Origin: Candidatus Nanoarchaeia archaeon
GTDB lineage: Archaea; Nanobdellota; Nanobdellia; Woesearchaeales; WJIZ01
DNA length: 64,000 nt
Direction: 5' to 3'
Assembly (NCBI GenBank): GCA_028279765.1
Contig: JANQND010000011.1
Span: 30,976-94,975 of the forward strand
The notes beneath the pieces were generated by a model. It did not search any database and had not been told where the DNA came from. It was given only the letters and a program-made list of their open reading frames with translations. The position numbers and the translations under genes are program-made. Each line of letters begins with the position of its first letter. The stretch's first letter is position 1. Positions 12,971 through 63,968 of the stretch are shown piece by piece.

Positions 12971-13074
12971 GGGCTCTTAGCTCAGCCTGGTTAGAGCGAT
13001 CGCCTCTTACGCGACTGGTTATATACCAGTATGAAGAAAGCGATAGGTCGGGGGTTCGAATCCCCTAGGGCCCA
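12971..13074 (+). tRNA. tRNA-Lys(CUU) with about 29-nt intron in the anticodon arm
   Basis: Cloverleaf folded by hand. Acceptor GGGCTCT/AGGGCCC, D-stem GCTC/GAGC, anticodon stem ATCGC/GCGAT, loop CUCUUA(A/C), T-stem GGGGG-TTCGAAT-CCCCT, discriminator A. The intron (~cgcgactggttatataccagtatgaagaa) contains its own hairpin. No CCA is encoded. Confidence 0.75.
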
Positions 13075-13179: not shown

Positions 13180-13428
13180 ATGTGTCTTGCGATACCCGGG
13201 AAAGTCATTGAAATAACAGGAGATAAGGCTGTTGCTGATTTTGGGGGATTGAAACGAAAAGTCGATGTTTCCCTTATTGATCAATGCAAGGTAAGTGATT
13301 ACGTCTTAGTCCATGTTGGTTTTGCTATTCAAAAGATTGATGAGCCAACAGCAAGAGAAACCTATCGTCTTCTCTCGGAAATGGATAAGGAAGCAATGAA
13401 CGAAGAGCTGAGGGCAAATCATGAATGA
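13180..13428 (+). CDS. hypC: Hydrogenase maturation factor HypC/HupF
   Basis: MCLAIPGKV... N-terminus, with the essential Cys2 after Met. Size 82 aa. Confidence 0.85.
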   Translation: MCLAIPGKVIEITGDKAVADFGGLKRKVDVSLIDQCKVSDYVLVHVGFAIQKIDEPTARETYRLLSEMDKEAMNEELRANHE

Positions 13429-14434: not shown

Positions 14435-14463
14435 ATAGTAAGTTGATTGGGAACAGATAGTGA

Positions 14464-15504: not shown

Positions 15505-17645
15505 AAATTAGTTTTCAGATAATAAGCAATTTGTCCGAAACTAATTCCTCCGTCTCCGCTTGGAACCTGCTTATTAAGATATACTCCTTTGTCGATCATA
15601 TAGGAGGACATGATTGTGTTGTATGCACACCCTCCTGAGAAGACTATCGGTTTCTTTTGTTCTGAAGCTATTTCGTGCAATCCTTTTGCAAGATAGAGCT
15701 GAGCGGTAGCTGCAAGCCTTTTCCTGTCTTTTTCTTTGTTTTCGATGAGGTACCTGAATAGAGGGGTAGTGAGTAAAACGTTATTTTCAATGACCGGCTC
15801 CATATCATAGGGTATGGATGAATGCGCTTCCAGCAGCATAGCTGGCCTTCCTTCATAGGTTCTCTCATTGCAAAGTCCCAGCATGAATGCGGCAGCATCT
15901 AAGATTCTCCCGCAGCTACTGGTTAGAGGACAATTGAATTGCTCATTGAGCTGCTTTCTCATTATGGCTAGTTCTTTTTGCGTGAAATAGTTTCGCATGT
16001 GCTTACTGCATTCTTCAGGAGGGAGGAATTTTGACAAAATGGAGAAAAGCATTTTTGCTGGATATTTCGCTGCAGAGTCGCCCCCCAGCTGATAGTGCTG
16101 CTCAAGATGTCCCGTTCGCTTGTTATTGTAAAATACCTCTCCCCCCCATATTGTCTCATCCTCACCGTAGCCTAGTCCATCACAGACGATTGCTGCGAAA
16201 TCTGTTAGATTGTGCTCTTGTGCGACACTGCAGGCATGAGCTTTGTGGTGCTGCACTCTTATCAGCGGAATATTCCACTCTTCTGAGAGTTCCTGTGCAT
16301 ATATCGAGGTATTGTAGGCGGGATGCGCATCTGCAAGTATCACCTCTGGTTTGCACTGAGTAAATGCAAGGAACTTGCTTACCATTTTTTTATAGGAATT
16401 GAAGGTGTTTGCATCTGAGGTTGTCCCCATGTAGGGAGAGAATATTGCTTTCTTGTCTTTGAATAGGCAGAAGGTATTGCTTAATTCTGCTCCCAGAGCG
16501 AGTATCTGTTTATGACATGAGGTTTTTAGGGGGATTGACTGTGGGACAAATCCCCTGCTTCTTCTTATCAGGAGGTTTTTGTTTTGGATGATTTTTACCA
16601 GAGAATCATCAATGGGGTTTTCTATTGGCCTGGTGTGATTGAGAATATTTTGTACGTTCTGCTGGCTGCTTGCGGTGGTGATAGGTTGATCGGAGATATT
16701 TGAGGAGGTCATGACAATAGGCTCACCGATGTAATCAAAAAGAAGGTAGTGAAGAGCGGTATAAGGCAGCATGATCCCAATCGTATCAAGCTCGCTTATT
16801 TCTTTCAGGGATGCTTTCTTTTTGAGAATGAGGATGGGGCGCTGTACGGACTGGAGAATGTCTGCTTCTTTTTTCGATATGTGAGCTATTTTTTTTGCCA
16901 TATCGATGTCTCTGCACATAACGGCGAAGGGTTTATGCGGCCTTGCTGTTATTGCTCTGAGTTCCTTGATTGACTCTTTTTGAAGGCTGCAGGCCAAATG
17001 GAATCCTCCGATTCCTTTTATGGCTACTACTTTGCTATTCTTAATGAGTTTAACCGTTTGCTCTATGAGTTCCAGCTCATTTGCGCTTTTAACTTCTCTC
17101 CCTTCTCTGAATAACTGCAGTCTTGGACCGCAGTTGTGACAGGCAATGGTCTGTGCATGATACCTTCTGTCTTTGGGGTCAGTGTATTCCCTATGGCATT
17201 CCGGGCACATCTCAAAAGAATCCATCGTTATTGTTTTTCGATCGTAGGGGCTTTTTTTTGCGATAGAGAAGCGGGGGCCGCAGTTCGTGCAGGTAGTGAA
17301 GTAGTAGTTGTGCCTTCTGCTTGTACTATCCTTGAGTTCTTTTTGGCAATCTTTGCAGAGGAACAGATCAGGCGGGATCTCAGCAAATCCTTTTCCTTCA
17401 CTTTCTTTTATGGTAAAATCATTGAAGTGTTTTTCTGATGGTTTTACCTCGTATGACTCGATTTTTGCAAGTTCAGGAACACCCTTTAGAATTCGTACAA
17501 ACTTTTCTTTATCGTTTACCTCAACGATCACGCCTCCTCCAGTATTTTGAACATATCCTCTTAGTCCTGCTTTTTTGCAGGCATTATAGATATATGGCCT
17601 AAACCCCACTCCCTGAACGATGCCTTTGATGATAAAGGTGTACAT
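15501..17645 (-). CDS. hypF: Carbamoyltransferase HypF
   Basis: Acylphosphatase-like N-terminus (VQGVGFRPYIY), paired Zn-finger CxxC repeats, a YrdC-like domain and a Kae1-like domain. Size 714 aa. Confidence 0.85.
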   Translation of the reverse strand: MYTFIIKGIVQGVGFRPYIYNACKKAGLRGYVQNTGGGVIVEVNDKEKFVRILKGVPELAKIESYEVKPSEKHFNDFTIKESEGKGFAEIPPDLFLCKDCQKELKDSTSRRHNYYFTTCTNCGPRFSIAKKSPYDRKTITMDSFEMCPECHREYTDPKDRRYHAQTIACHNCGPRLQLFREGREVKSANELELIEQTVKLIKNSKVVAIKGIGGFHLACSLQKESIKELRAITARPHKPFAVMCRDIDMAKKIAHISKKEADILQSVQRPILILKKKASLKEISELDTIGIMLPYTALHYLLFDYIGEPIVMTSSNISDQPITTASSQQNVQNILNHTRPIENPIDDSLVKIIQNKNLLIRRSRGFVPQSIPLKTSCHKQILALGAELSNTFCLFKDKKAIFSPYMGTTSDANTFNSYKKMVSKFLAFTQCKPEVILADAHPAYNTSIYAQELSEEWNIPLIRVQHHKAHACSVAQEHNLTDFAAIVCDGLGYGEDETIWGGEVFYNNKRTGHLEQHYQLGGDSAAKYPAKMLFSILSKFLPPEECSKHMRNYFTQKELAIMRKQLNEQFNCPLTSSCGRILDAAAFMLGLCNERTYEGRPAMLLEAHSSIPYDMEPVIENNVLLTTPLFRYLIENKEKDRKRLAATAQLYLAKGLHEIASEQKKPIVFSGGCAYNTIMSSYMIDKGVYLNKQVPSGDGGISFGQIAYYLKTNF

Positions 17646-20551: not shown

Positions 20552-20646
20552 GGGCTGGTAGTTAAATCTGGAAGCTGGGAACAGTTGGATAATATAACGC
20601 GCCGCTGGCAGCGGTGAGGCTCCGGGTTCAAATCCCGGCCAGTCCA
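20552..20646 (+). tRNA. tRNA-Ala(GGC) with non-canonical intron (about 18-20 nt) in the D-loop
   Basis: Folded by hand. Acceptor GGGCTGG/CCAGTCC with a G3:U70 pair, the alanine identity element. U8-A9, D-stem GTTA/TAAC enclosing a 30-nt loop (normally 8-11), anticodon stem CGCCG/CGGTG, loop CUGGCAG, T-arm CCGGG-TTCAAAT-CCCGG, discriminator A. Confidence 0.65.
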
Positions 20647-32622: not shown

Positions 32623-34863
32623 GTGGTTGAGGCACTAACAGTATCTGAGACAGAAATCGAGGGCATTCCTTCTCTTATTGATGATCTTTCACAGACAATA
32701 GACAAGAAATCTTCGGATAGAGCCAGTTTGCGAAAGTCACCAATCTCTCATAAGAAGGAGAAGACAAAAAAGAAGAAAGGAAAAAAGAAAAAAACAGTTG
32801 AAAAAGCTGAAGAATTAAAGGAACCTACGAAGGAGTCAAAAAAAGAGAAGTCCAGAAAAAATACAAAGAACAAAAAAAAGAAATCAGAAAAAAAATCCTC
32901 CTCTGAAAAGGATTCATCAGATGAAGGATCAGAAAATTCAAACCATATTAGCATAACCTATACCAGGGAGAAGCAACTAGCTGCGTATAGGTCATCTACT
33001 TCTGAAGTACACTCGAACGAAAGCCAGCATCAATTTTACCGCACTTCCAAAGAAACACATCTGGGACTACTCACAGAGACGGATCATGTACTTATTGATT
33101 ATGTGTCGGGAGACAAACAACTGTCTATGCAGTACGATCGAATTGAGCAAGTTAGTCAAAAAACGAGCACCAGTAATTATGAGTCATTAGATCAGGCGAT
33201 TCATATTGATGCTGCAACTCGTGAAACCAAAACCATAGAGGAAAAAACGGTTAGATACCAGTCTGTAGACCAATCCACAGAAGCAATTACGATAGCTCAC
33301 AGTCAGGATAGTTCTCTTGAATCAACAGTGGTGGAGTATTCGTCATCACAGTCAGTTTCAGTTGTTAGCACAGACATAGCAACTCACACTGATCAGGGAG
33401 AATCTCACCTCTACCAGCAGCAGAATCAACAGAGTGAAAATGTGCAGGCAAGTGATGCTGCACCATATTCAGGCTCTTCATCTCAGGCTTCTGCAAACGA
33501 ACAAGTACATGCGGAGACTACTACTGCTCCGACACAAGATCTTTCTCTTGAGCAGGCTGCCGCTGCTTATACAGCTTCCGACTCTTCTGCTTTGTCCAGT
33601 TCTGATCCTTTGGTTCTTGCTACTGAAGAACCTGCAGCATCTCACTATCAGGCTGGTGCAGAGAGCACCACTACCGCTGCTCCTACTCAAGACTTTACCC
33701 TTGAGCAAGCCGCTATTGCCTATACAAACTCCGATACTATTGATATTGCTAGTTTTGATTCTGCTTTACAGGTTACTGAACAACAGATAGAAACTCAGTA
33801 CCAAGCTAATACAGAGGGCACTACTATCACTGCCCCTTCACAGGACCTAACGCTTGAGCAGGCTGCCACTGCTTATACAAACTCCGCTACTTTTGATCTT
33901 GCTAATTTTGATTCAGCTTTGGAGGCTACTGAACATTTACGAGATTCAAATCAAGGAGTGCAGGTCTCGCAAGAATTGGAACAGATTACTCAAAAGGAGG
34001 CGGTCCAATATCAAACAGGACAAACCAGTCAACAAGCTGAAACTCAGACAGTTGTACAAGATTCTCAGCAACAAAATGAAAGATATAGCAGTGGCAGTAA
34101 CAATCTTGAGCAAATAACAGTAGCTCCTTCTGGTGATAAGGAAATCCAATCAGTTCAGAATAAAACTGCATCAGCCAACGTAGAGGTGCAAAAGGAGAGT
34201 AATTACCGGTCAAGCGAGGCAGCTTCCAATGCCAGTGAAACAACACCTGTATATCGAGATTCTCAGTCACAGACTACAGCCGCCCAAAGTAGCTATAGGG
34301 AATCTTCTTCGTCCATTGATCAGGTGACAGGATCAACACCGTATACTCGGGAATCATCAGGAAGTCCAGAATCAGGATACAAGTCTCAATCAAGTAGCTA
34401 TACTCAAACTGAAACCTCGACTTCTTCATCAACTGTTGAAGTAGTGACCAGTATAGATGAAGTCACTGATAAAGCTCAAGACAACTATTCAGCTGAACCC
34501 TCTCTTGGAGAGCATGGCCATAACGGTCAAGATGATGGCCCGATGTATAATGGGGGAGAAGGGGATCATCCATATGATGGCGGTTGTGGGTGTGGTGCTT
34601 GCGCGACAGCTGGCTCTTCTCCTGTTGTATCCATGACGGAAGAGGGCGAAAAAGCGTATACTTCAGCGACAGAATTTAGCAATACTTCTCATAATTCAGA
34701 TAACGGGCAACCTGACTCGGGAGGAGATTATTCAGCTGATGCCCTGGCGGATATATTTAATATAGATATTGGGGCAAATGTTGATGATGCCAAAAAAGAC
34801 GCAGATCTTTGTGGCTGTGGTTGCGGAACGGAAGTTTACAAATCCTTAGAACCAATGCAGTAA
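32623..34863 (+). CDS. large intrinsically disordered K-rich/acidic Ser-Thr-Gln-rich repeat protein with C-terminal CGCG motifs
   Basis: 746-aa ORF from an apparent GTG start about 25 nt after a TATA-like box. Lys-rich N-terminal region, three imperfect 48-aa tandem repeats (TTAPTQDLSLEQAAAAYT...), C-terminal GGCGCGAC and CGCGCGTE. No signal peptide seen. Confidence 0.55.
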   Translation: MVEALTVSETEIEGIPSLIDDLSQTIDKKSSDRASLRKSPISHKKEKTKKKKGKKKKTVEKAEELKEPTKESKKEKSRKNTKNKKKKSEKKSSSEKDSSDEGSENSNHISITYTREKQLAAYRSSTSEVHSNESQHQFYRTSKETHLGLLTETDHVLIDYVSGDKQLSMQYDRIEQVSQKTSTSNYESLDQAIHIDAATRETKTIEEKTVRYQSVDQSTEAITIAHSQDSSLESTVVEYSSSQSVSVVSTDIATHTDQGESHLYQQQNQQSENVQASDAAPYSGSSSQASANEQVHAETTTAPTQDLSLEQAAAAYTASDSSALSSSDPLVLATEEPAASHYQAGAESTTTAAPTQDFTLEQAAIAYTNSDTIDIASFDSALQVTEQQIETQYQANTEGTTITAPSQDLTLEQAATAYTNSATFDLANFDSALEATEHLRDSNQGVQVSQELEQITQKEAVQYQTGQTSQQAETQTVVQDSQQQNERYSSGSNNLEQITVAPSGDKEIQSVQNKTASANVEVQKESNYRSSEAASNASETTPVYRDSQSQTTAAQSSYRESSSSIDQVTGSTPYTRESSGSPESGYKSQSSSYTQTETSTSSSTVEVVTSIDEVTDKAQDNYSAEPSLGEHGHNGQDDGPMYNGGEGDHPYDGGCGCGACATAGSSPVVSMTEEGEKAYTSATEFSNTSHNSDNGQPDSGGDYSADALADIFNIDIGANVDDAKKDADLCGCGCGTEVYKSLEPMQ
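33520..33960 (+). repeat. three imperfect tandem repeats of about 145 nt within the coding sequence
   Basis: Repeated units begin actactgctccgacacaagatctttctcttgagcaggctgcc, actaccgctgctcctactcaagactttacccttgagcaagccgct, and actatcactgccccttcacaggacctaacgcttgagcaggctgcc. Confidence 0.7.
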
Positions 34864-51185: not shown

Positions 51186-52130
51186 ATGGTGCAATCAGCT
51201 CAAATCAGCTATGATTCTGAAAGTGTCAGAAAGGCAGCGGAGCAAGCAGGGTTCACTATTGAATTTAATCCTTTAGTTAGCGCCCCTCTACTCCTTAGGG
51301 ATACCGCTGTTGATAGAGTATACTTCCATTTATCTGGGGGAAGAGGCCAAGAAGCTCTAGGAATAGGAAGAGGGGCAGGGAGGTCTACAATGTATTCTCT
51401 ACTGACGCGATCTTCGAGAGAGCAATGGAATCGGGATCATAGAGATGCCTGGACTTTGCTTAGAAAGAATGAAGCTGTGATGGAATTTATAGACTATTAT
51501 GTTTGTGCGAATGGAAAAGAGCGGATTACAGCAGGAACATTCCCCGAGAGATCAGCATATCCTGATGTGATTCCTAGAACTTTAGTAGAGCATCCATCTT
51601 TTCATGGGGAAGGCTTGGACGCGCTTTTTGGAGGGAATTACGGCCAAGCAACTGGCCTTGATGACTATGCAAATCCGATATTGCATCAACTGTCGCAAGA
51701 GGATAAAATGATGCTAGCACTGCGTGACTATCGTTGGGAAAATTTTTCGAATACTCAGCGCGAAATTTATTGGATGGATGGGATGTTATTTACGGGAATG
51801 ACGACTATGCTAGGTGTTCTTGTTTGTGGCGCTTTACCTACTGCAACAATTTGTGCAGTCTATGAAAGTATACAGGGGAGTCCCGCTCTTCCCGGTAACC
51901 CTCCTCTTCCTGAATGGATAGCACATGTTGCTGGAGTTGGAACAGTGATTGGAGCAACGATCGGACTTGCATATGGGATTAAGGACGTTCTCAGTGCTAG
52001 CAAAGATGAAGAAGCAGAAGATCTATCATTGGATACTCTTTTATTCAATGAGAACGTTATCAGATATCTGGAGTCTGTTCCAAAATTGAGTAAGATAGGT
52101 CAGCTATTAGTGACTAAGCTAAGGAATTGA
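51186..52130 (+). CDS. hypothetical protein with C-terminal TM segments
   Basis: 314 aa with hydrophobic stretches near residues 200-260. Confidence 0.4.
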   Translation: MVQSAQISYDSESVRKAAEQAGFTIEFNPLVSAPLLLRDTAVDRVYFHLSGGRGQEALGIGRGAGRSTMYSLLTRSSREQWNRDHRDAWTLLRKNEAVMEFIDYYVCANGKERITAGTFPERSAYPDVIPRTLVEHPSFHGEGLDALFGGNYGQATGLDDYANPILHQLSQEDKMMLALRDYRWENFSNTQREIYWMDGMLFTGMTTMLGVLVCGALPTATICAVYESIQGSPALPGNPPLPEWIAHVAGVGTVIGATIGLAYGIKDVLSASKDEEAEDLSLDTLLFNENVIRYLESVPKLSKIGQLLVTKLRN

Positions 52131-52982
52131 ATTCTTACCAAAACATTGCCTCATCGCAAGTACCTTATGCGCGAGTTTAGCCAGACTAAACGCCTCCGCA
52201 TCATCGTTTTCTTTTGGTGCAAACTCAACAATGTCTGCGCTGATAACTTCTTTTTCCTTAAAGATAACCTTGAGCATAGCAATGACCTGCAGCCAGTGAA
52301 ACCCTCCCGGCTCCGGCGTTCCGGTATTGCGAACAAATGAGGGATCGAAGACATCTACATCAATGGAGAGATAGACTTTGGTTTTGAGTCTTTTGAGCTT
52401 TTCTTTCAATATACTTTCATCGTATTCGTATGCTTTAATCATGTCAATGCGATCGTTTTCTTCAATCATTTCTTTTTCATCGCGATCCATAGACCGAATT
52501 CCTATCTGAAGAACCTGGTGATTCTCAACTGCACGCATACTTACGCAGCGATGATTATTCGATGATCCATTCCAGGAATGAAAATAATCTGCATGCGCAT
52601 CAAGGATAATAACAGAGCAATCCTCCTCGATACCCTGCAATAATCCAATAGTAGTGGAATGATCTCCACCTAATGAGAGAGTGAATCGTTTTCCAATCTT
52701 TTTTCTTTCTGAATCTATTTTTTTTATTGCATCCTGCGGCTTCTCATTCGTAACATCTAGGAGAGGCAACGTATGTATCCCCTCCATAAACGGCTCGCAA
52801 TCAAACTCATCATCATAATACTCCAAATGCTTGGAGGCTTTGATAATTTCCTGCGCTCCCTTTGCTGCACCCTTGCCGAAGGTTACTTCTCCTTCGTTTG
52901 CAATAGGAAAAATGATTGCTTCTGAATCAGGTTTACTGTACTCTTCTGGTAGGTTCATGAAATTCATCTTGACCATTCTCAT
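52119..52982 (-). CDS. speB: Agmatinase/arginase-family ureohydrolase
   Basis: Mn-binding motifs GGDHS, DAHADY and SIDVDVFDP. Confidence 0.8.
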   Translation of the reverse strand: MRMVKMNFMNLPEEYSKPDSEAIIFPIANEGEVTFGKGAAKGAQEIIKASKHLEYYDDEFDCEPFMEGIHTLPLLDVTNEKPQDAIKKIDSERKKIGKRFTLSLGGDHSTTIGLLQGIEEDCSVIILDAHADYFHSWNGSSNNHRCVSMRAVENHQVLQIGIRSMDRDEKEMIEENDRIDMIKAYEYDESILKEKLKRLKTKVYLSIDVDVFDPSFVRNTGTPEPGGFHWLQVIAMLKVIFKEKEVISADIVEFAPKENDDAEAFSLAKLAHKVLAMRQCFGKNSIP

Positions 52983-54017
52983 TCACTCTACGATCTTAGT
53001 CTCTAACTTATCTAGATCACAAAAATCTGTCGTAAAATTATAGGCGCCAGCATTAAGAAAGGTGATAGTATCTCCTATCTTGGGGTCTTTCAAGTAAACA
53101 CGGTAGCGAAACAGATCCATGGAACAGGGTGTTATTCCTTTGATGACATAGGGCTCTCCCTCGTCTTTAGATACTTCTCCTTTTACCAGTAGCTTAACGG
53201 GTACGACCACTGCATCAAGGTCTGAATTGTACACCGATGCGTTCACGATGATGGTGTTCTCGTGTATGCCGATAATTGTTGATTCGAGGGTTACTGCAGG
53301 GGCTGCGACAAACCTGCCAGGCTCAAGGATGAGCTTTACGTTATGCGATGCGAGCCACTGCTTAAATTCTGTAATTTTCCTGTAGATCCCATCCAGCACT
53401 TTCATGTTCGTGTTGGCATAAGAAGAAGGAAGGCCCCCCCCTATGTTTACAACATCGATTTTTTCAAGCAAGTCTTTGGGCAGGATTCCTGAGAGTTCAT
53501 GGGAGAGATTCCACTCACTCATATTTTGTGTTTTGCGATGAAAATGAACGCCAAGAGAGGTAATGTTCTTGATTTGATGCAGCTGCTCAATTCTTTTTTG
53601 CACTACTGCTGCTTTCATTCCAAATACATAGTACCGCTCTGTTCTGAGGGTGTTTTCTTTGAGTTGCAGCCGAAGGAAAAGCTCAATGGGTATGTCGTTT
53701 TTCCCGATATAAGCAATCAATGTGTCCAGGTCAGTTTCATTATCGACAATGAATGAGCGAATCCCTTTTTCTATCAGCTGTTTGATTGCTTTCTCGTCCC
53801 ATCCCTGCGCAAGAAAAATGACCCGTCCCATATCCTGTACATGCTTAAGCTCATTGAAAAAATGTACGCTAAACCTGCTGTCTGTTTCTTTTTCGAGAAT
53901 CCTGGTAATATCCTGGTTGGTCTTGGAACTATAGGATATTTCATCGGCAAGTTCTCTTACTACGTTGTACTGTTGCAGTGCTTTACTCTTTGATAGGATA
54001 AACTTAGCTTTTTGCAT
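52983..54017 (-). CDS. PLP-dependent fold-III decarboxylase (Orn/Arg/DAP decarboxylase family)
   Basis: PLP-Lys motif YSSKTN, GVHFH..TQ (cf. GxHxHxGSQ), NIGGGLP, EPGR, and a C-terminal Cys-x-x-D. Substrate not assignable from sequence alone. Confidence 0.65.
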   Translation of the reverse strand: MQKAKFILSKSKALQQYNVVRELADEISYSSKTNQDITRILEKETDSRFSVHFFNELKHVQDMGRVIFLAQGWDEKAIKQLIEKGIRSFIVDNETDLDTLIAYIGKNDIPIELFLRLQLKENTLRTERYYVFGMKAAVVQKRIEQLHQIKNITSLGVHFHRKTQNMSEWNLSHELSGILPKDLLEKIDVVNIGGGLPSSYANTNMKVLDGIYRKITEFKQWLASHNVKLILEPGRFVAAPAVTLESTIIGIHENTIIVNASVYNSDLDAVVVPVKLLVKGEVSKDEGEPYVIKGITPCSMDLFRYRVYLKDPKIGDTITFLNAGAYNFTTDFCDLDKLETKIVE

Positions 54018-55011
54018 GTTGATTCACGTGTTCTTGCAGTGTTCCTTTTTTCTTTTCTGAATCTGCTCTTTCTTTTTTGAGCAAACCTTCAGATTCCAGC
54101 TCTTCGAGGGCTTTAATCATCGCCAGCGGGAACATGATCGTTACATCACCGATAACGGTTGCGACATCACTCTCATCTTTTACTTTCCCCCACGATTTTG
54201 CCTCTTCGGTGGTCGCCCCGGACATGCTTCCTGAAGTCTTGTGTGCTGTGGTCATATAGACTGCGTATTCTGCACCGCCGTTGAGCAAGGTTGCAAGGAT
54301 AGCATGGTGCTTGGAGATGCTTCCCCCCAGTGCGATCACTCCTTTTTTCTCATCAAAGGTTGTTGAGAGTAATATATTTCCAAAGTCAGCAACCACATCA
54401 ATGATGAAGTCCGGATGCTTTTGCTGGAATAGATAAAGATGGAACCCGATTGCTCCATCAGTGATCGCAGGACAATAGATAGGAATGCCATTTTTTGCTG
54501 CCTGATAGAGTATGGAGTTTTCATCTTCAAGGAGCAAGCCAATTTCCCTGAGCAACTCTGATACTGCCCATCGCTTCTTCTTTTGATAGAGTCTGTCGAG
54601 AACCGGCATGAGCCAGTCTTCAAAATTCATATAACTCTCATTGTTGACCAGGATATTCCCTACCCTGTTTACTCCCTGCTCATGCAACTCGACATCGTCG
54701 CTATCAAACCTTCCTACTTTGAACTGCTCGCCAGTTGCCTTCATGATGTCTTCCTCGAGGCCTCCTGCAGTGGTTACGATGACATCAGCGATACCAAGGC
54801 TTGCCATCTGAGCAAAGAACCCGCGCAAGCCGGAAGTCACCATGTTTGAGGTAAAGGTGAGAAATATCTTTGCAGAGTCTTTTTTCATCTTGACGATAAC
54901 ATCAGCAGCTTTTGCCAGCTCGATACTTTGATACCCTAAAGAAGCATAACTATTGAGAAGATCTTCCACCTTCATGCCCTTTTTCCATAAAAAATCGTTT
55001 ACTATTTGCAT
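54004..55011 (-). CDS. dys: Deoxyhypusine synthase
   Basis: DHS-family Rossmann motifs (TSNMVTSGLR, TTAGGLEED, GGSISKHH). Confidence 0.8.
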   Translation of the reverse strand: MQIVNDFLWKKGMKVEDLLNSYASLGYQSIELAKAADVIVKMKKDSAKIFLTFTSNMVTSGLRGFFAQMASLGIADVIVTTAGGLEEDIMKATGEQFKVGRFDSDDVELHEQGVNRVGNILVNNESYMNFEDWLMPVLDRLYQKKKRWAVSELLREIGLLLEDENSILYQAAKNGIPIYCPAITDGAIGFHLYLFQQKHPDFIIDVVADFGNILLSTTFDEKKGVIALGGSISKHHAILATLLNGGAEYAVYMTTAHKTSGSMSGATTEEAKSWGKVKDESDVATVIGDVTIMFPLAMIKALEELESEGLLKKERADSEKKKGTLQEHVNQHAKS

Positions 55012-55176
55012 ACTATCACCTAGAATACTGTTGTCTAAAGAGAAATCTACCTACCTGAATGGCTTACAGAATCAAAACACCCGCTTGGGAACTGAGGTAG
55101 CATAGAAGGTCAAAACACCGGCTTCTTTAAAAAAATTGCGATATATTTATATAGGAAAAGGTTCAGGGAGTACTTT

Positions 55177-55395
55177 ATGAAGAAAAATGTGGCTTTTTGG
55201 CTACTAATATCTGTTTTACTAGCCTATGGTTGCTCAGAGTCCGGACAGAATCAGGTAAGCGGCAGTGCCACCAGTGATCTTCAGGAAACCGCCTGCAATG
55301 CTGCTCATAGAAACGGTGAGTGCAGCAGGCTAGGCAGTCTGAAACTGGCCTCTGTTGAGGTGTGCTGTAGCGAATACGGTAAGTGTTGCCCATGA
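55177..55395 (+). CDS. small secreted Cys-rich lipoprotein
   Basis: Signal peptide with lipobox LAYGC, then 7 Cys in 50 residues. Overlaps the start of the downstream beta-helix gene. Confidence 0.5.
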   Translation: MKKNVAFWLLISVLLAYGCSESGQNQVSGSATSDLQETACNAAHRNGECSRLGSLKLASVEVCCSEYGKCCP

Positions 55396-57383
55396 AAAAA
55401 ATAATCTTGCTCCTCAGTCTTTCTTTGCTGTTATCTACAGTTGTTTATGCAGAAAAAATCTTTCCGAATTGTCCCGTAGAATCAGATGAGGAAATGGAGA
55501 TCCAGCAGATCATTGGCCAGGGTTTGTTTGATTACCTAAAAAATCCAGAGGAGAGTTCCATTACTCAGGACGAGCTTAAAGATGTGATTGATTTCTATTT
55601 CGGATCAGACTCGTGCTATAATAAGGGATCAAGGACCAAGGCTGATTATATCGCAATTCTCAACAAGATAAGAAAAGTAGGCTTTCTGAATTTTCAGCAG
55701 GGTACTACCTGTGCCCTCAAGAATACTGTTGTTCCTAATGGCACCTGGCATAGAGAATTTATTTGTATTGATGGCCTCATGCATCCAGACTGCACCAATG
55801 AGAGTGCCAGCTGCCCGGCCGGAACATTGTGCAATGCAACTTCCGGGCGATGCTATCAGGAAGAATCCTATCTTTATTCCTGCGCAAATTCGACCATTGA
55901 GCCTAACTATTATATCCTGCAAAATGATGTGCAAGCTAACGAGAGTACGTGTTTTACTTTAGGAGCTGATCATACGGTACTTGACCTAAACGGGTTCACG
56001 ATTCATACTGAAGAGGGAGCTCATGCAGTGCAAGTTAATGCACAAAAAGTTACTATCAAAAATGGAGGCATCAGCGGTTTTTCCTCGGCAATTTCCGTTC
56101 AGGGATCTCAGAATGTTGTTGATGGAGTTACTGTAGAGCAGTCATCTAACGGGCTCGCAGTTGACATTAACGGAAATTTCAATATGGTCTCCTCAGTTAC
56201 TGCAGAGCAGGGAAGCGGTGTACGGGTAACTGGCAACAGAAATGCCATCAGTGGCCTTGTGGCCAGCGGTAATAAGATAATCGGGAATAATAACTGGATT
56301 AAGGATAGTACTATTGATGGAAAAAACATTGCGGGAAGCAAAGGGATATATCTTACAGGTACGGGAAACAATGTGACTGACAATACTATCTCTAAGCACA
56401 AAGCTGCAGGTATTCATGTTTTCAGCAGCTCTAAAGGTTATATTAAGGATAATATCTTTTCTTCTAATTATGACGGGATTTATCTGCAGAACTCTGAACA
56501 TACGATAGTTACTGACAACACCATTGGATCAAGCTCAAGCAAGGCAATTTATTTGAGGAGTACTAAATCGGCAGCAGTGAATCGTAATACCATTAACGGT
56601 GGTGTACACAGTATTCGACTCTCGCACTCTGATAGCAACGCGATGAAGCATAATACTATCATTGGTAGCAGCTATGGCCCTTACCTGTATAGATCTGATA
56701 GCAACAGGGTCTACTACAATGATATTACGAATGTGAAAAACTATGGAACGTATGTGAAGTATAGCTATAGGAACTACTTGTTCGCGAACGATATTATCAA
56801 TAGCAAGAAAGAAGGTATTTATTTGTCCAGGTCTCATAAAAATACTCTTAGTTCAAATGATGTGGAAAATTCAAAGAGTTATGGTATCAGGCTTTCCTCA
56901 AGCGATAGCAATAAAATGAGGTATAATGATGTCATTAAGGCTAAGAAGTCGGGATACCGGCTCTATGATAGTGATAAGAACTTACTTTGGAGAAATGATG
57001 CAGTAGAAGGAAATTCGTATGGGTTCTATATTTATAACAGTGACAAAAATAAACTTTCCTTTGATATAGCAAAGCGAAACAAAGGAAGAGGATTTTATCT
57101 CTCCAGCAGCAGCAGCAGCTCGTATAAAGTTTCTAAATATAATGACCTGAATAGGATAAGATCGTATGACAATAAGTATTATGGAATCTTCTTGCGTTAC
57201 CACAAGTACACCAAATTGCGGAACACTGTCTCCTGCGGCAATAAGGTTGCCGATCTGGCATGTGCACATAAGCCCTCGACCTTTAGCGACAACACTGCTG
57301 AGAAGTCCAGTAGTGCATATGGTGGCTGCAAAAAATCCGTAAGCAAATGTTCTGATGTAGAATATTTCTATGGAAGAAATTAA
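55383..57383 (+). CDS. secreted right-handed parallel beta-helix repeat protein with Cys-rich N-terminal domain
   Basis: Signal peptide, a conserved 150-aa 8-Cys domain (FPNCP...SCPAGTLCNATSGRCY), and more than 12 PbH1-like repeats (N.I..N...GI.L..S..N.I..N). Confidence 0.65.
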   Translation: MLPMKKIILLLSLSLLLSTVVYAEKIFPNCPVESDEEMEIQQIIGQGLFDYLKNPEESSITQDELKDVIDFYFGSDSCYNKGSRTKADYIAILNKIRKVGFLNFQQGTTCALKNTVVPNGTWHREFICIDGLMHPDCTNESASCPAGTLCNATSGRCYQEESYLYSCANSTIEPNYYILQNDVQANESTCFTLGADHTVLDLNGFTIHTEEGAHAVQVNAQKVTIKNGGISGFSSAISVQGSQNVVDGVTVEQSSNGLAVDINGNFNMVSSVTAEQGSGVRVTGNRNAISGLVASGNKIIGNNNWIKDSTIDGKNIAGSKGIYLTGTGNNVTDNTISKHKAAGIHVFSSSKGYIKDNIFSSNYDGIYLQNSEHTIVTDNTIGSSSSKAIYLRSTKSAAVNRNTINGGVHSIRLSHSDSNAMKHNTIIGSSYGPYLYRSDSNRVYYNDITNVKNYGTYVKYSYRNYLFANDIINSKKEGIYLSRSHKNTLSSNDVENSKSYGIRLSSSDSNKMRYNDVIKAKKSGYRLYDSDKNLLWRNDAVEGNSYGFYIYNSDKNKLSFDIAKRNKGRGFYLSSSSSSSYKVSKYNDLNRIRSYDNKYYGIFLRYHKYTKLRNTVSCGNKVADLACAHKPSTFSDNTAEKSSSAYGGCKKSVSKCSDVEYFYGRN

Positions 57384-57403
57384 TTCGAGGTGCAAGAACT
57401 TAA

Positions 57404-59644
57404 ATGAGAAAGATAATACTGACCATGCTTCTTTGTTGCCTGTTTTCTGTTAGCGTGAGTGCTGCAAAAATATTCCCTAACTGCCCCACCGAATCCGATG
57501 AAGATGGAGAGGTACAGCAAATCATTGGCAGAGGGCTGTTTGAGTTTCTTAAGAATCCTGAGCAGAGCAAGGTAACTGCTGATGAACTCAAGGATGTTAT
57601 CGAGTTTTATTTTGCGCTTGATTCGTGCTATACTAAAGGGATGCGTACGAATTTACACTATATTGATATTCTTAATAAAATATCAAATATAGGCTATATT
57701 CAGGTGCAGCCGGGAAATGATTGTACGCTTAATACGACTACTATTCAAAATGGAAGCTGGTATGAAGAGTTCTATTGTATTGATGGCCTGCTTCATGCTG
57801 ACTGCACTGATACAAATGCTGAATGTCCGCAGGGAACACTGTGTAATGCGACATCTGGCAGGTGTTATGGAGATGAGCTCATTAATGGATCAGTCTCCCC
57901 ACCTTCTCTTGACCTACCGCCGGGATTGATCTCTTGGTGGACCTTTGATGACCTTGAGGGAGATACCGTTAAAGATGAGGCTGGAAACTACAATGGAACA
58001 TTACATGAGGGCTCAAGCCCTGCAGGTTCTGGTGAGGGTCCTCAACAAGTAACAGGAGTAAAAGGTATGGCATTAAACTTTGATGGTATCAATGATCATA
58101 TTAAAGTAGGAGCAATAGATGAGCTGACCACCTATAATTTTACAATTGCTGCCTGGGTGAAAGGGGAGGGAACCATTGTTGACATTGGGCGAGGTGCTCC
58201 TCATGCAGCTTACGGTATAAAAAAAGATCACCGCGTGCGAGCATATGCAAAGTACCCTCTCAAAAATTATAACGAAAAATATTCTTACGCTCCAGAGGAA
58301 TGGAACTTCATTGTAGCTTCCTTTTGGGGTCCGATTGAGTGGGACCAGTTTAACTTTAACAAGTATATTGCATTATACCATAATCGAGATAGTAAACCAA
58401 TTCGTTCCCATACTGCATTGAAGCATACTTCTGCAAAATTCCTCTCTATTGGATTGTCATGGTATCATTACTATAATGATTATTTCAGCGGTATTATCGA
58501 TGAAGTGATGATTTTTGATCGTGTATTGACGGAATCTGAAAAGGATTCATTATATGATGCAGTAGCTGATATTCCAAATAATGGGGTATGCGGAAATAAA
58601 AAAGATCCTAGTGAATTTGACTGTGGGCCTCTCGTATTACTCGAAAGCTGTTCAGAGGACCCCTTAGATCAGCAAGGTATGCAATATATCTTGCAAAACG
58701 ATGTCACCACAGCAACTGGAAACTGCTTTACGGTTACTGCAGATGATATTTATTTGAACCTCAACTCCAAAACTATTACTGCTCAAGCACCCAGCAGCAA
58801 TGGTATCAATCTTCAAGCTCAGAATGCTACTGTTCGAGATGGAACTCTTGTCCTGGCAGGCATAACGATTGATTCAAGTAGTTCAAAAAACACTATTGAA
58901 GATCTGGATATTCAGATGGATGGAGAAGAGGGAATTGTAGTCAAAGGAGATGATAATTTTCTTCGGTCAAACACTATTGATGGTGCAGAAAAGGCTATTC
59001 ACGTAGTTTCATCAGGGGGAAATTTTGTTGAAACGAATACCATAACCGACTCTACCCTTGGAATCTATTTACACAATGCAAGCAATAATCAATTATCCTC
59101 AAATAATGTTCGAAACAGCGAAGATGATGGAATTCTCCTCTCAAAAAGTTTGAATAATACTTTAATAGCAAACCGTGTGTACGACAGTATAGGGGAGGGA
59201 ATTGTTCTGCTCGATAAAAGCTCCTTCAATCAGATCCGCTACAGTATAACACAAGGAAACCATTATGGGATTGCCATCATATCCAGCGGTAATAATACCT
59301 TCACGCAAAACAATGCACATAGGAATCGAGATTCTGGATTCTATAGTACTAGCGGGCACAATAATAGGTTTAACGCAGACAGAGCAAATGAAAATGAGGT
59401 AAATGGATGGACTATTCGGCTATCAAATGATAACAGTTTCAGTGGAATACAAGCATATAATAACGTAAACTATGGTATCCGATTCAATCTGCATGCTAGA
59501 AATAATATTACGAACAGTGTAGCCTGTGGAAACTCGGCATTTGATATACATTGTAAGCATGGCGTGCTCGGAGAAAGTACTTCTGGAAATAGGGCTGACA
59601 GTGCTGTCGGATGTACTTCGCTAACCGTTCAGAGTTGTTCATAA
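57404..59644 (+). CDS. secreted LamG-like + parallel beta-helix repeat protein (paralog of upstream gene)
   Basis: The same N-terminal Cys-rich domain (about 60% identical to its neighbour), a concanavalin/LamG_3-like segment (WWTFDD...GVKGMALNFDG...NFTIAAWVK), and PbH1 repeats. Confidence 0.65.
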   Translation: MRKIILTMLLCCLFSVSVSAAKIFPNCPTESDEDGEVQQIIGRGLFEFLKNPEQSKVTADELKDVIEFYFALDSCYTKGMRTNLHYIDILNKISNIGYIQVQPGNDCTLNTTTIQNGSWYEEFYCIDGLLHADCTDTNAECPQGTLCNATSGRCYGDELINGSVSPPSLDLPPGLISWWTFDDLEGDTVKDEAGNYNGTLHEGSSPAGSGEGPQQVTGVKGMALNFDGINDHIKVGAIDELTTYNFTIAAWVKGEGTIVDIGRGAPHAAYGIKKDHRVRAYAKYPLKNYNEKYSYAPEEWNFIVASFWGPIEWDQFNFNKYIALYHNRDSKPIRSHTALKHTSAKFLSIGLSWYHYYNDYFSGIIDEVMIFDRVLTESEKDSLYDAVADIPNNGVCGNKKDPSEFDCGPLVLLESCSEDPLDQQGMQYILQNDVTTATGNCFTVTADDIYLNLNSKTITAQAPSSNGINLQAQNATVRDGTLVLAGITIDSSSSKNTIEDLDIQMDGEEGIVVKGDDNFLRSNTIDGAEKAIHVVSSGGNFVETNTITDSTLGIYLHNASNNQLSSNNVRNSEDDGILLSKSLNNTLIANRVYDSIGEGIVLLDKSSFNQIRYSITQGNHYGIAIISSGNNTFTQNNAHRNRDSGFYSTSGHNNRFNADRANENEVNGWTIRLSNDNSFSGIQAYNNVNYGIRFNLHARNNITNSVACGNSAFDIHCKHGVLGESTSGNRADSAVGCTSLTVQSCS

Positions 59645-59678: not shown

Positions 59679-60167
59679 TTATCTCTTTTTCCCACTGTAT
59701 TTTTCTTTAATGCGTCTAAGAACTGAATCAGGAACTAAATCCTGTAACCCTCCTCCTAATGACGCCACTTCCTTGACTACAGAGGAACTTAGATAGCAGT
59801 ATTTTCCCCTGGTCATGATAAATACGGTTTCAATACTGGAGTCTAATTTTCGGTTCATGAGCGCTGCCTGAAACTCAAAATCAAAATCAGATACTGCTCT
59901 TAGCCCTCTAATAAGAGCCTGAGACTTTTTTTCTTTTACGAAATCTACGAGAAGTCCGGAAAAATGATCAACTTCCACTTTGAGATGCTTGGTTGCTTCT
60001 TTGACCATCTCTTTTCTTTCTTCAACAGAAAAAAGATAGTTCTTCTCTTGATTCTCTCCGACAGCGATGATTACCTTATCGAATATTTTTAATGCTCGTT
60101 CGATAATATCTACGTGACCCATCGTAATAGGATCAAAACTTCCTGGGTATACACCTACTTTCTCCAT
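59679..60167 (-). CDS. coaD: Phosphopantetheine adenylyltransferase, bacterial type
   Basis: GVYPGSFDPITMGH with a nucleotidyltransferase H/TxGH motif. Size 162 aa, typical of bacterial CoaD. Confidence 0.85.
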   Translation of the reverse strand: MEKVGVYPGSFDPITMGHVDIIERALKIFDKVIIAVGENQEKNYLFSVEERKEMVKEATKHLKVEVDHFSGLLVDFVKEKKSQALIRGLRAVSDFDFEFQAALMNRKLDSSIETVFIMTRGKYCYLSSSVVKEVASLGGGLQDLVPDSVLRRIKEKYSGKKR

Positions 60168-61985: not shown

Positions 61986-63968
61986 TTATTCCATAGGTGT
62001 CTCGCTCCAGAGTGTCCAGTCATTACTGGGTGCGTACGCTCCGAAGATGAAATAGGGTGATTGTCCCTGCCCGAAATAACTGTGCTGCATCTGGCTCCAG
62101 CGATCCTGAGGACCGCCCCCGCCTCCTCCACCGCCGGCACCATAAATAGGTGATCCAAGAAATCTCCAGGTTTTCATGAGGCCATGAAAGTCTGAGAGGT
62201 CGGTAGACGCATCCGCCCCCGGCTCGATAGTGATGGCATCCTCATAGCCATGCTTTTTCATAATATGCAAAAACTCTTTGAGGGGTGCGTTTCCCTCTCC
62301 GGGAGAGAGATGATCATCCTGATACCCGAAATTATCCACCAGATGCACATTGCCGACCATTTTTTCTTTTGCTAAGTCCTCTATTTGGTTAAGGTACCAG
62401 TTTTTGAATTCCTGCTCATTTTCTTCTTCACTTGCGCCCGGCTTAGGCTGAAAATATTTCCTCCAGAGATTGAGATGGCCGGTATCGATCGTTGCCCTGA
62501 TATGCGTTTCTGCCAGCTTCTTTGCTTCTTCTTTGTTCAGATCAGAGCGATAGAAAGGGTTTTCCTGCTTTCTTACTGATAGCTCCCCTGTTGCAGGATC
62601 CTTGTCAAAAACTGATTCTCCCTGATACGTTGTTCCTAATTCCATTTCAGGCTCAGTCAAATAGTCCACCATCCGATCCCTTGCACGCTGAATGATCCAT
62701 TTGAGTTCTGCAGGGTGGCCTCCAAATCGCTCCGGAAAGATGTGCTCGATGGAGACGAAGATGGGCTTTTCTGGATTGTCTGACTTGTTCATGGCATGCA
62801 GGCCGGATTCTGCATAATGCCTGATGGAGTATCGGTCAACGTACTTGAGCGGCTCGACGATATGCCGTTTGTTTTCTGCGGTATCAAATGCCTGCTGCTC
62901 CTGCGAGGCTGATGACTGCCTTGCGAACTCTAATTGCTTCTGCTCTGCACGGATAGCATCATTTATTGCTTCCAGGGGCGAGAGTGTCTCTGATGGAATC
63001 ATTCCTTGAGTTGCAATGGTAATATTAAATTGCTTTTCACGCATGAGCTTCCATTTCTCTTCTTCAGGCATGTTCTTGTCTAACTCTTCATAAAAATTTT
63101 TTGCCTCATGCAGCTTGTTGAGATTATCCAGGTGAATATCGGTACTCAGCCCGTACTGCAGTGCCCATCCCCTGGAGTGGCCTTCCTGTGTTTCCAGTGT
63201 TGCCTGCAGGAATGCCTCGGTTTGGGTCGTCGTGTCATAAAAATCAAGCTGCGCGTTAGATCCGTCTTCTCTTTGCAGGTTTCGCAGCTTATAGTAATTC
63301 TTCTCATCTGCTTCCTGCTTGAAATCTTCATAGCTCATGTACCTGATTTCGAACCTGCCTGAATCGCGATTATATTGCGGAACCCTTCCCTTGTTTGGGT
63401 CGAATGGGTCGTCAATGAGGTTTCCCCGATAATCAATGTAATCTCCTTTTCTTACGGTATGGCCGTTTTCGTCGACGTACTGCGATTTTCCTCCTGCCCT
63501 TTTCCAGAACTCGTCATTTGTTTCATCGTACCTGTTCCAGACCGGAAACGCTACCAGGCGATCCTTTTCCACGGTTCCCATTGCCTGGCCGGTTCGATCG
63601 TCAACCAGATAGAACTTTGCATCTTTATCTTCTGTCAGGCGCTGCTTGAACATGATCCTGCCGTCCTGCCCCTCTGAGAGGTTATGCCCGTTTGTTGGAT
63701 CGAGGTACATGTCCGTAAGCGGCCGTAAGAATTCTCCAGTATGAATCACTACGCTCCCTCCGCCTGCAACATCGGCAGCAAAGTCAATTGCCCGCTCGAC
63801 TTCGTGCTGTGCCTGGCGTGCCCTGTTCATGTCAAATTTGATCATATCTGACCCCTGCTCGATCGCGCCGGTCATGCCCATCATCTGGTAGGCGGCATGA
63901 GTAGTGTACTCCACTTCATTGATCTCTGCCATTTCCCGTAGCGCCTGCCGCTGATCTCTTCCGTACAT
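61986..63968 (-). CDS. large hypothetical protein with C-terminal xylose-isomerase-like TIM-barrel domain and poly-Gly tract (N-terminus may lie beyond window)
   Basis: C-terminal region has motifs IDTGHLN and HLVDNFGYQDD...EP resembling sugar-phosphate isomerase/AP-endonuclease-2 TIM barrels, plus GAGGGGGGGGP. This region is more GC-rich than the rest of the window. Confidence 0.5.
   Translation of the reverse strand: MYGRDQRQALREMAEINEVEYTTHAAYQMMGMTGAIEQGSDMIKFDMNRARQAQHEVERAIDFAADVAGGGSVVIHTGEFLRPLTDMYLDPTNGHNLSEGQDGRIMFKQRLTEDKDAKFYLVDDRTGQAMGTVEKDRLVAFPVWNRYDETNDEFWKRAGGKSQYVDENGHTVRKGDYIDYRGNLIDDPFDPNKGRVPQYNRDSGRFEIRYMSYEDFKQEADEKNYYKLRNLQREDGSNAQLDFYDTTTQTEAFLQATLETQEGHSRGWALQYGLSTDIHLDNLNKLHEAKNFYEELDKNMPEEEKWKLMREKQFNITIATQGMIPSETLSPLEAINDAIRAEQKQLEFARQSSASQEQQAFDTAENKRHIVEPLKYVDRYSIRHYAESGLHAMNKSDNPEKPIFVSIEHIFPERFGGHPAELKWIIQRARDRMVDYLTEPEMELGTTYQGESVFDKDPATGELSVRKQENPFYRSDLNKEEAKKLAETHIRATIDTGHLNLWRKYFQPKPGASEEENEQEFKNWYLNQIEDLAKEKMVGNVHLVDNFGYQDDHLSPGEGNAPLKEFLHIMKKHGYEDAITIEPGADASTDLSDFHGLMKTWRFLGSPIYGAGGGGGGGGPQDRWSQMQHSYFGQGQSPYFIFGAYAPSNDWTLWSETPME

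Follow-up and report, generated by a model that had tools for sequence, protein, structure and literature searches.

An attached life on other cells is generally assumed for DPANN archaea, and we know of essentially no attachment machinery for uncultured groups such as Woesearchaeota. A 64,000-nucleotide stretch of contig JANQND010000011.1 from a Candidatus Nanoarchaeia archaeon (hereafter, the window) carries three intact, co-directional open reading frames (ORFs) on its forward strand at positions 55177-59644, here named L, A and B. Together they raise the question of how secreted proteins that have no anchor of their own might be held at the surface of such a cell. L encodes a small, cysteine-rich protein with a predicted lipid anchor and a C-terminal domain that we call the “knob”. 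A and B encode larger secreted proteins that begin with a common domain, the “handle”, and continue into “passenger” regions. Judged from their sequences, knob and handle represent two domain families not characterised before, and their genes occur as a conserved pair in archaea of the Woesearchaeota type and in relatives of these. The initial annotation of this DNA had described a three-gene module in which the gene for a Cys-rich lipoprotein overlaps the first of two paralogs sharing an N-terminal domain with eight identically spaced cysteines, and all of this is borne out below, well beyond what chance would give. What it missed is that the predicted small lipoprotein is, by the comparisons presented here, the conserved partner of the handle across the family.

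The handle domain of A and B

The eight cysteines of the handle fall at residues 27, 75, 107, 125, 134, 141, 147 and 154 in both A and B. Over their first 158 residues the two proteins are 62% identical with no gaps (BLASTP expectation value [E] 5e-68), compared with 24-27% identity beyond this point. Codon positions 1 and 2 of the two handles are 77% identical and position 3 is 41% identical, which is near saturation. The third-position value argues for constraint at the protein level and rules out recent gene conversion as the source of the high handle identity. Conservation of the protein alongside near-saturated third positions fits constraint from a putative common partner. The shuffling of a handle onto unrelated passengers is ruled out as well, because the β-helix of A finds its best match in that of B and vice versa (E 2e-20; other family members reach 1e-5 at best), and we regard A and B as true tandem paralogs.

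The initial annotation did not recognise this N-terminal module, and it has no relative in Pfam, NCBIfam, PDB sequences or PDB folds. The lone Pfam match, to Granulin (PF00396), covers 21 residues of the Cys-rich half at 13.3 and 14.9 bits against a cut-off of 20.9 and was rejected, as was an equally sub-threshold likeness to vWC and knottin domains. There was no match in NCBIfam, nor in PDB sequences when a two-sequence profile was used. A 12-sequence profile gave weak PDB matches only, the best being a GH20 β-N-acetylhexosaminidase (E 0.005, 20 bits), a relationship for which fold searches gave no support. AlphaFold2 (AF2), supplied with the same 12 sequences, models the handle with a mean predicted local distance difference test (pLDDT) score of 87.1 and a predicted template-modelling score (pTM) of 0.76. 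In the model, three helices precede the Cys-rich half, which contains six short strands, and its best Foldseek match among PDB folds has an E of 0.5, indicating no relative.

These 12 sequences are the handle family as defined here. The two-sequence A/B profile, searched exhaustively with HMMER against 1.84 billion cluster representatives, returned only these 12 proteins at E ≤ 1e-3, A and B included. All 12 are singleton clusters, one of which is annotated as Candidatus Woesearchaeota. In every member the handle directly follows the signal peptide and the part downstream varies. Most relatives have ten handle cysteines; A and B both lack one pair (NGTC to NGT/SW), so this loss is older than the A/B duplication. 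Knob and handle partners alike have an even number of cysteines in almost every case, in agreement with predicted intramolecular disulfides. Handle motif scans of GTDB genomes and Joint Genome Institute (JGI) metagenomes revealed no relatives. A word-indexed protein search with the single handle sequence and with the 12-sequence profile gave no match, but it missed the query proteins too, and the index is therefore blind to this family. Handles of the window type are rare, with 12 representatives set against thousands of sampled aCPSF1 sequences in the lineage. A second scan, which starts from the knob and is described below, indicates that the wider handle superfamily is larger than the two-sequence profile could detect.

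A small anchored partner and variable passengers

L has seven cysteines. Its N-terminal hydrophobic region (residues 4-20) ends in ...LLAYGC, and Cys19 is the predicted site of lipidation. A PROSITE-type lipobox pattern, {DERK}6-[LIVMFWSTAG]2-[LIVMFYSTAGCQ]-[AGS]-C, fits all five complete lipobox-type homologs of L, with the cysteine at position 18-19. Lipobox proteins and the AliA lipidation enzyme family have been reported or predicted in DPANN (PMC12462473). L shares with the archaeal lipobox lipoproteins of the AliA/AliB pathway a Sec-type signal peptide ending in a lipobox-like ...GC. However, the known archaeal lipoproteins are mostly substrate-binding proteins and enzymes, whereas the mature L peptide would be just 53 residues long, with a 36-residue cysteine knob as its sole folded part.

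The knob lies at the extreme C terminus of L and has the framework C-x8-C-x13-CC-x5-CC. Across eight aligned knobs, C7, A10, C16, C30, C31, C37 and C38 are invariant, and the 36-residue consensus is [DE]FQxxACxxAxxxxxCxRLxxLGxxTxExCCxExxKCC. A knob hidden Markov model (HMM) matches exclusively the knob ORFs. The knob belongs to no family in PDB, NCBIfam or Pfam, and it has no CxxC or thioredoxin-like motif. Sub-threshold Pfam matches to Penaeidin (PF05927, 12.2-14.2 bits) and Conotoxin (PF02950, 17.1 bits) recur in several L homologs, and the C...C...CC-x5-CC framework of these families resembles that of the knob. Both were rejected, since the knob scores about half of the 25-bit gathering cut-off that applies to each; these are soluble animal peptides, and the likeness is most likely convergent.

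We define a pair as a knob (C-x8-C-x13/14-CC-x5-CC) at the C terminus of a small anchored protein, with a handle right after the signal peptide of the next gene and the two genes overlapping or no more than 20 nucleotides (nt) apart. The window contains such a pair. Starting from the handle, that is, from the 11 loci (window included) that encode handle family members, a knob gene lies immediately 5′ of the handle gene in eight, usually overlapping it. The spacings are -4 nt in the window, -4 in L002, about +2 in L003 (once an A9 frameshift is corrected), -13 in L007, -22 in L008, +19 in L011, -10 in L012 and +3 in L013. The small gene upstream of handle proteins P0003, P0009, P0005 and P0007 encodes a signal peptide with a lipobox-type cysteine, a low-complexity tether of 10-65 residues and an L-like 36-residue knob. 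The most distant members, P0011 and P0012 (∼25-27% handle identity), also have a small knob protein upstream, in which a transmembrane (TM) helix replaces the lipobox and the tether is Gly/Ser-rich or acidic. In P0010 (L003:813-3239) knob and handle appear to be fused, but the join falls at the A9 homopolymer and the +1 frame reads ...KKKCCEELKVCC*, which indicates a two-gene layout with a frameshift rather than a fusion.

P0003 is a 234-residue protein with 40% handle identity to A, and its locus (L002) has its own knob lipoprotein gene (L002:1332-1655) together with pilin-like genes. It comes from the same sample as the window (SRR20820735), where it lies on an 89-kb NCBI contig of similar G+C content (42.5%). 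The locus may belong to the same genome, which would give this organism two modules.

The reciprocal search started from the knob. A scan of JGI metagenomes for the motif CC[SKE][EK][LY][GSQ]KCC gave 12 loci, of which ten are non-redundant and nine can be assessed for a downstream handle, the contig of L019 ending too early. In each of the 12 loci, a small protein anchored by a lipobox or a TM helix has the knob at its extreme C terminus. The handle HMM matches the downstream ORF, which overlaps the knob gene, in six of the nine (L014, L016/17, L018, L020, L024 and L025), and in L014, as in the window, two handle genes lie in tandem. Two more, L015 and L023, show weak handle similarity confined to the helical half. 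In all six of the loci with clear matches (for L016/17, in L016) the handle ATG is located inside the terminal Lys-Cys-Cys codons of the knob (AAATGCTGC, read M-L-L/R), and homologous junctions are also present in L007 and L008. A handle start codon embedded in the knob codons of such distant members argues that the pair is inherited as a unit.

The knob is mounted in more than one way. By eye, the knob-first loci L014, L016, L018, L020, L021, L024 and L025 have lipobox-like ...GC ends, and in L012, L013, L015, L019 and L023 the anchor is a TM helix of 22-25 residues. In L016, L020 and L025 a pilin-like protein with a class III signal N terminus (KAQISMEFF...) itself ends in a knob (knob HMM E ∼1e-14). 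The pilin-like proteins of L002, L007 and L009 have C-terminal extensions whose similarity to the knob is insignificant, and in these three loci a second, shorter pilin-like gene precedes the pilin-like gene. All of these proteins are mutually homologous (E 1e-11 to 1e-93). The sequence K(A/S)Q(I/Y)SMEF followed by a hydrophobic stretch can be seen by eye in the six loci, and the Pfam Class_IIIsignal match is weak (16 bits against 23.7). The handle proteins, on the other hand, have no hydrophobic segment beyond the signal peptide in 12 of 12 cases and hence no anchor of their own.

Right-handed parallel β-helices make up the passenger of A and, together with LamG, that of B. The initial annotation had read such arrays in both proteins, and they score well above the gathering cut-offs for NosD (PF05048; 134.3 bits in A and 75.2 in B, cut-off 23.6) and Beta_helix (PF13229; 129.4 and 78.1 bits, cut-off 25.9), with TIGR03804 parallel β-helix repeats (NCBIfam) in seven stretches of A and four of B. 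The nearest solved sequence to the A β-helix is AlgG (4nk8, E 5e-7), through the repeats only. The AF2 model of the B β-helix (residues ∼490-715, pLDDT 82-96) matches GH87 glucanase, AlgG/AlgE, NosD, tailspike depolymerases, pectate lyase and the PfbA adhesin in Foldseek (E 2e-5 to 4e-3, 10-16% identity), and the NosDFYL structure 7osf is among these matches. As modelled, the fold is of a type that binds or processes glycans; the β-helices of A and B yielded no catalytic motif. AlgG mannuronan C5-epimerase itself (NF038177) was rejected at 21.6 bits against 700, with no alg gene context. A similar four-cysteine cap (…CGN…D…C…H…, plus two more Cys) closes A (57230-57383), B (59500-59641) and the product of the gene upstream of P0004 (L005:2-646), and perhaps represents a conserved motif that caps the C terminus in this β-helix subfamily.

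The LamG domain that the initial annotation placed in B is also confirmed (Laminin_G_3, PF13385; E 3.4e-10, 40.7 bits against a cut-off of 27.6; PDB 4qvs, E 7e-7). In the full-length AF2 model, built on a shallow alignment, this region was left unmodelled (pLDDT ∼25), and the assignment is thus one of sequence. Its best passenger match is the LamG domain of P0005. Elsewhere in the enlarged family the passengers comprise NosD-type β-helices, LamG, immunoglobulin-like He_PIG/Kre9, FG-GAP, IPT/TIG and Hint domains, and short Cys-rich or repeat tails; by these domain assignments, they are adhesion or surface modules. Behind its β-helix, P0010 has, in addition, a Hint/intein-like domain (PT-HINT) and a C-terminal tail rich in Cys.

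A proposed model for surface display

The knob and handle genes are very probably coupled in function. That the two domains dock physically, or that one anchors the other, is a narrower claim toward which we incline slightly. We also lean, if modestly, toward reading L-A-B as one operon for a two-part cell-surface display module of a Woesearchaeota-type archaeon.

In the proposed mechanism, L would be exported and lipid-anchored through its lipobox cysteine, and would present, outside the membrane, a 36-residue knob with three disulfides at the end of a flexible, short tether. Secretion of A and B would be through Sec, and neither carries an anchor. Their handles, each with a three-helix part and a disulfide-rich β part containing four disulfides, would bind the knob non-covalently and so keep the variable C-terminal passengers on the cell surface: a glycan-binding or -processing β-helix in A, and LamG plus β-helix in B. 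There they would either attach to a partner cell or substrate by its polysaccharide or glycoprotein surface or process that surface. The overlapping stop and start codons would couple translation of the anchor to that of the first passenger protein and match their production, and a single anchor gene would serve both paralogs. In relatives, the same knob would sit on a TM helix or a type-IV-pilin-like protein, and the handles would carry other adhesin-type passengers. The gene pairing, the domain architectures and the lack of other anchors and of known relatives are observed, whereas lipidation, the disulfides, binding of handle to knob and a role in adhesion are what we infer.

The strongest argument that the small protein holds the knob at the surface is that its anchor is swapped between non-homologous forms (lipid, TM helix and pilin-like) while tether and knob are kept. 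That knob and handle are strictly paired, and that the handle proteins carry nothing else to anchor them, then points to the handle as what the knob holds. Taken furthest, knob and handle would form an undescribed archaeal docking system, a DPANN counterpart of cohesin-dockerin that mounts interchangeable adhesin or glycan-binding modules on a lipid anchor, TM helix or type-IV-pilin-like stalk. We offer this proposal tentatively, placing its chances a little under even.

Several observations weigh against surface display through docking. Three of the 11 handle-first loci (L004, L009/10 and L005/6) have no adjacent knob gene. The L009/10 handle lacks the Cys-rich half, and at L005/6 the upstream gene encodes another β-helix protein and the contig ends there, making this locus a possible A-B-like tandem. 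From the knob side, L021/22 has a knob with unrelated downstream genes and no handle, the only such case among the nine assessable loci. The strict lipobox [LVI][ASTVI][GAS]C fits just two of the five complete homologs, and L of the window (A-Y-G-C) fails it. A mirror-tree (Mantel) comparison of knob and handle divergence gave r = 0.37 (p ∼0.05), driven by the L012/L013 pair, and among the six lipobox-type pairs r = -0.08, so that the comparison does not establish co-divergence. Finally, a role as chaperone, inhibitor or assembly factor would also be compatible with the adjacency and the translational coupling.

This last point underlies an alternative in which L serves in maturation or control and not as an anchor. 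While the Cys-rich handle is being secreted, or afterwards, L would bind it for a time only, as a chaperone tethered to the membrane, as an inhibitor, or as a helper in folding or disulfide formation. Chaperones and their cognate proteins, too, are typically encoded by strictly adjacent genes with tightly coupled translation, and both L and the handle proteins are Cys-rich. However, the knob has neither a CxxC or thioredoxin-like motif nor a family match, a disordered tether of variable length on interchangeable lipid, TM or pilin mounts suits a display stalk rather than a catalyst, and the handle proteins would be left without means of staying on the cell; we consider this explanation unlikely. 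Low odds also attach to a pilus-associated variant, in which the handle docks mainly on the pilin-like knob, the passengers are tip or lateral adhesins, and L is an assembly intermediate or a membrane-proximal alternative. It draws on the pilin-like genes (“KAQISMEFF”, “AQYSMEF”) directly upstream in L002, L007, L009/10, L016, L020 and L025, on the three loci whose pilin-like protein itself ends in a knob, on the link of DPANN LamG proteins to type IV pili loci (PMC5498576) and on TafC, a LamG-tipped fimbrial subunit (PMC11821415). Yet the 64-kb window has no pilin-like homolog, many loci have a lipobox or TM anchor alone, and the Class_IIIsignal match is sub-threshold. This variant is in any case a form of the proposed display mechanism and not an exclusive alternative to it.

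Two further explanations separate L from the handle. L could be a disulfide-rich, toxin-like or antimicrobial surface peptide that is co-transcribed with, but independent of, freely secreted glycan-active A and B proteins. The recurrent matches of the L family to Penaeidin (12-14 bits) and Conotoxin (17 bits), with their common CC-x5-CC framework, are what suggests this, and all of them are below their cut-offs. Against independence, adjacency is kept in both search directions among members with ∼25-30% handle identity, the handle start codon is embedded in the KCC codons, and L is predicted to be membrane-tethered rather than released, making this option improbable. Least probable is a metal-handling pair like NosL/NosD, with L as a Cys-rich lipoprotein metallochaperone delivering Cu or Zn to NosD-like β-helix proteins. 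A and B do match Pfam NosD (“periplasmic copper-binding protein”), NosL is generally known as a lipoprotein partner of NosD, 7osf is among the fold matches, and P0012 has a MopE-type metal-binding motif. But neither protein is NosD proper (TIGR04247; 63.4 bits for A and 32.9 for B, against 300), no nos genes such as nosZ/F/Y lie nearby, and even cysteine counts in extracellular domains point to disulfides. Moreover, the conserved partner of the knob is the handle and not the β-helix, and many handle proteins have no NosD-like region.

Locus layout, genomic setting and related systems

The coordinates of the features are collected in the table below. The A start codon in public gene calls is the ATG at 55392, which overlaps the TGA of L by 4 nt (ATGA). 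If the in-frame GTG at 55383, 9 nt further upstream, is the start, the overlap is 13 nt. This GTG (within the junction AAGTGTTGC, window 55381-55395) occupies the position in the knob Lys-Cys-Cys codons at which homologous loci carry ATG. A and B are separated by 20 nt, within which GAGGTG occurs. From the usual archaeal promoter geometry, we infer that TTTATATA is the putative sole L-A-B promoter and would give a leaderless or short-leader transcript; as there is no space for a second promoter inside the cluster, L-A-B is read as one operon. A scan for sigma-70 promoters and terminators gave counts equal to those of shuffled sequence, a bacterial model that is not meaningful for an archaeon. 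No additional copy of L or of the handle domain is present in the 64-kb window.

Table. Features of the L-A-B locus (window coordinates) and pilin-like genes at related loci (locus coordinates)
Feature	Position	Strand	Description	Basis
Archaeal TATA-box-like element TTTATATA	55146..55153	+	∼27 nt upstream of L start codon	Read from sequence
Gene L	55177..55395	+	72 residues; anchor-tether-knob protein	ORF
L signal peptide and putative lipobox	residues 1-19; Cys19 at 55231-55233	+		PROSITE-like match 'LLISVLLAYGC'
L tether	residues 20-33	+	Short, Ser/Gly/Gln	Family alignment
L C-terminal six-Cys knob DLQETACNAAHRNGECSRLGSLKLASVEVCCSEYGKCCP	55276..55392, residues 34-72	+		Alignment, knob HMM
Gene A	55383 (GTG) or 55392 (ATG)..57383	+	666 or 663 residues; secreted handle and β-helix	
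Handle of A	55452..55865	+	138 residues, 8 Cys; three-helix half, then small disulfide-rich β half	
A passenger	55884..57383	+	Right-handed parallel β-helix (PbH1/NosD-type repeats) and C-terminal four-Cys cap	Pfam, NCBIfam
Shine-Dalgarno-like GAGGTG (putative role)	57387..57392	+	11 nt upstream of B start codon	
Gene B	57404..59644	+	746 residues; secreted handle, LamG and β-helix	
Handle of B	57464..57877	+	138 residues, 8 Cys; spacing same as A	
B LamG/concanavalin-A-like lectin domain	58082..58540, residues 227-379	+		Laminin_G_3 HMM
B β-helix	58766..59554, residues ∼455-717	+	C-terminal Cys cap then to 59641	Pfam, AF2
Pilin-like, ending in knob	L016:3285-3821, L020:3067-3663, L025:545-1234		Directly upstream of knob/handle genes	
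Pilin-like, longer Cys-containing extension	L002:532-1287, L007:1552-2301, L009:528-1262		Directly upstream of knob/handle genes	

The organism fits the DPANN-type archaeon that the initial annotation conditionally suggested. The aCPSF1/FttA protein encoded in the window shares 79-83% identity with proteins that carry the name Candidatus Woesearchaeota or Nanoarchaeota archaeon in NCBI, and the window also encodes proteasome α and β subunits and exosome Rrp4/41/42, supporting its predicted origin in a Woesearchaeota-type DPANN archaeon. The contig is also found in the Logan assembly of SRR20820735. Divergent from L, a compact polyamine/hypusine cluster (52119-55011, reverse strand) encodes deoxyhypusine synthase (PF01916), Orn/Arg decarboxylase (PF02784) and an arginase/agmatinase-family protein (PF00491). 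Convergent with B are genes on the reverse strand for a CoaD-like protein (CTP_transf_like, 59679-60167) and CoaE (PF01121, 60203-60790), which read as bacterial-type and suggest horizontal acquisition. Further away, [NiFe]-hydrogenase maturation genes occupy 13421-17645 (HypD, 13421-14434, E 1.5e-116; HypF, 15501-17645; a 346-residue ORF between them). A full-length Rfam tRNA match of 104 nt at 12971-13074 (forward strand), a length implying an intron, was not called by ARAGORN, which reports only tRNA-Ala(GGC) at 20578-20646. A 746-residue low-complexity protein rich in Lys/Ser/Thr/Gln (32623-34863, forward strand) has repeated TAPTQD(L/F)(S/T)LEQAA.AYT.SD units and C-terminal CGCGAC/CGCGCG motifs and no obvious signal peptide. 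A 660-residue protein (61986-63968, reverse strand) matches a xylose-isomerase-like TIM barrel only near the C-terminal part and contains nine consecutive glycines (GAGGGGGGGGGP); G+C content around this gene is 49.5%, compared with ∼41% elsewhere.

We rate non-covalent display on an anchored surface partner as a known kind of arrangement. The cohesin-dockerin system of cellulosome scaffoldins follows the same logic, with a docking module on varied secreted carbohydrate-active proteins that pairs with a module on a surface-anchored, linker-rich protein and so lets the passengers be exchanged, but neither knob nor handle is a cohesin or dockerin by sequence or fold. GPIHBP1 has a lipid anchor, a disordered tether and a small disulfide-rich domain, with which it holds a secreted protein, lipoprotein lipase, on the cell surface (PMC9457329, PMC3339605), as proposed for L. 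GPIHBP1 is, however, eukaryotic, anchored by glycosylphosphatidylinositol, of the Ly6/three-finger fold and unrelated in sequence to L, and the analogy is conceptual only. The A and B passengers are bona fide members of the NosD/Beta_helix Pfam families and resemble NosD/NosL-system and other right-handed β-helix proteins in fold, whereas handle and knob are absent from NosD, AlgG/AlgE, GH87, pectate lyases, tailspikes and PfbA alike.

LamG proteins are abundant in DPANN, are sometimes linked to type IV pili loci and have been proposed to mediate host contact (PMC5498576), and TafC is a LamG-tipped subunit of haloarchaeal Tat-fimbriae (PMC11821415). B resembles these secreted, LamG-bearing archaeal surface proteins, and B, P0005 and P0006 weakly match the TafC model through the LamG region. 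In contrast, TafC is Tat-secreted and assembled by donor-strand exchange, its model scores 35 bits against a cut-off of 410, and no knob/handle pair has been described for TafC or the DPANN LamG proteins. The host-attachment or cell-surface role that the initial annotation suggested for A and B would agree with their passenger domain types and with these published views (PMC5498576). Knob, handle and their pairing are not described in the works searched, a set too incomplete for this to prove novelty.

The architecture points to modular display, in which one membrane- or pilin-mounted knob would serve many handle proteins with different adhesin-type heads. If docking is true, it would add a new archaeal protein-anchoring principle to C-terminal TM helices, archaeosortase/PGF-CTERM, lipoboxes and pilin-type signals, and it would provide a simple sequence signature with which to find the surface adhesins of these organisms in metagenomes. 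The knob-handle pair could also serve engineering as a small orthogonal binding pair. For the organisms themselves, it would offer a molecular handle on how Woesearchaeota-type episymbionts attach to their partner cells.

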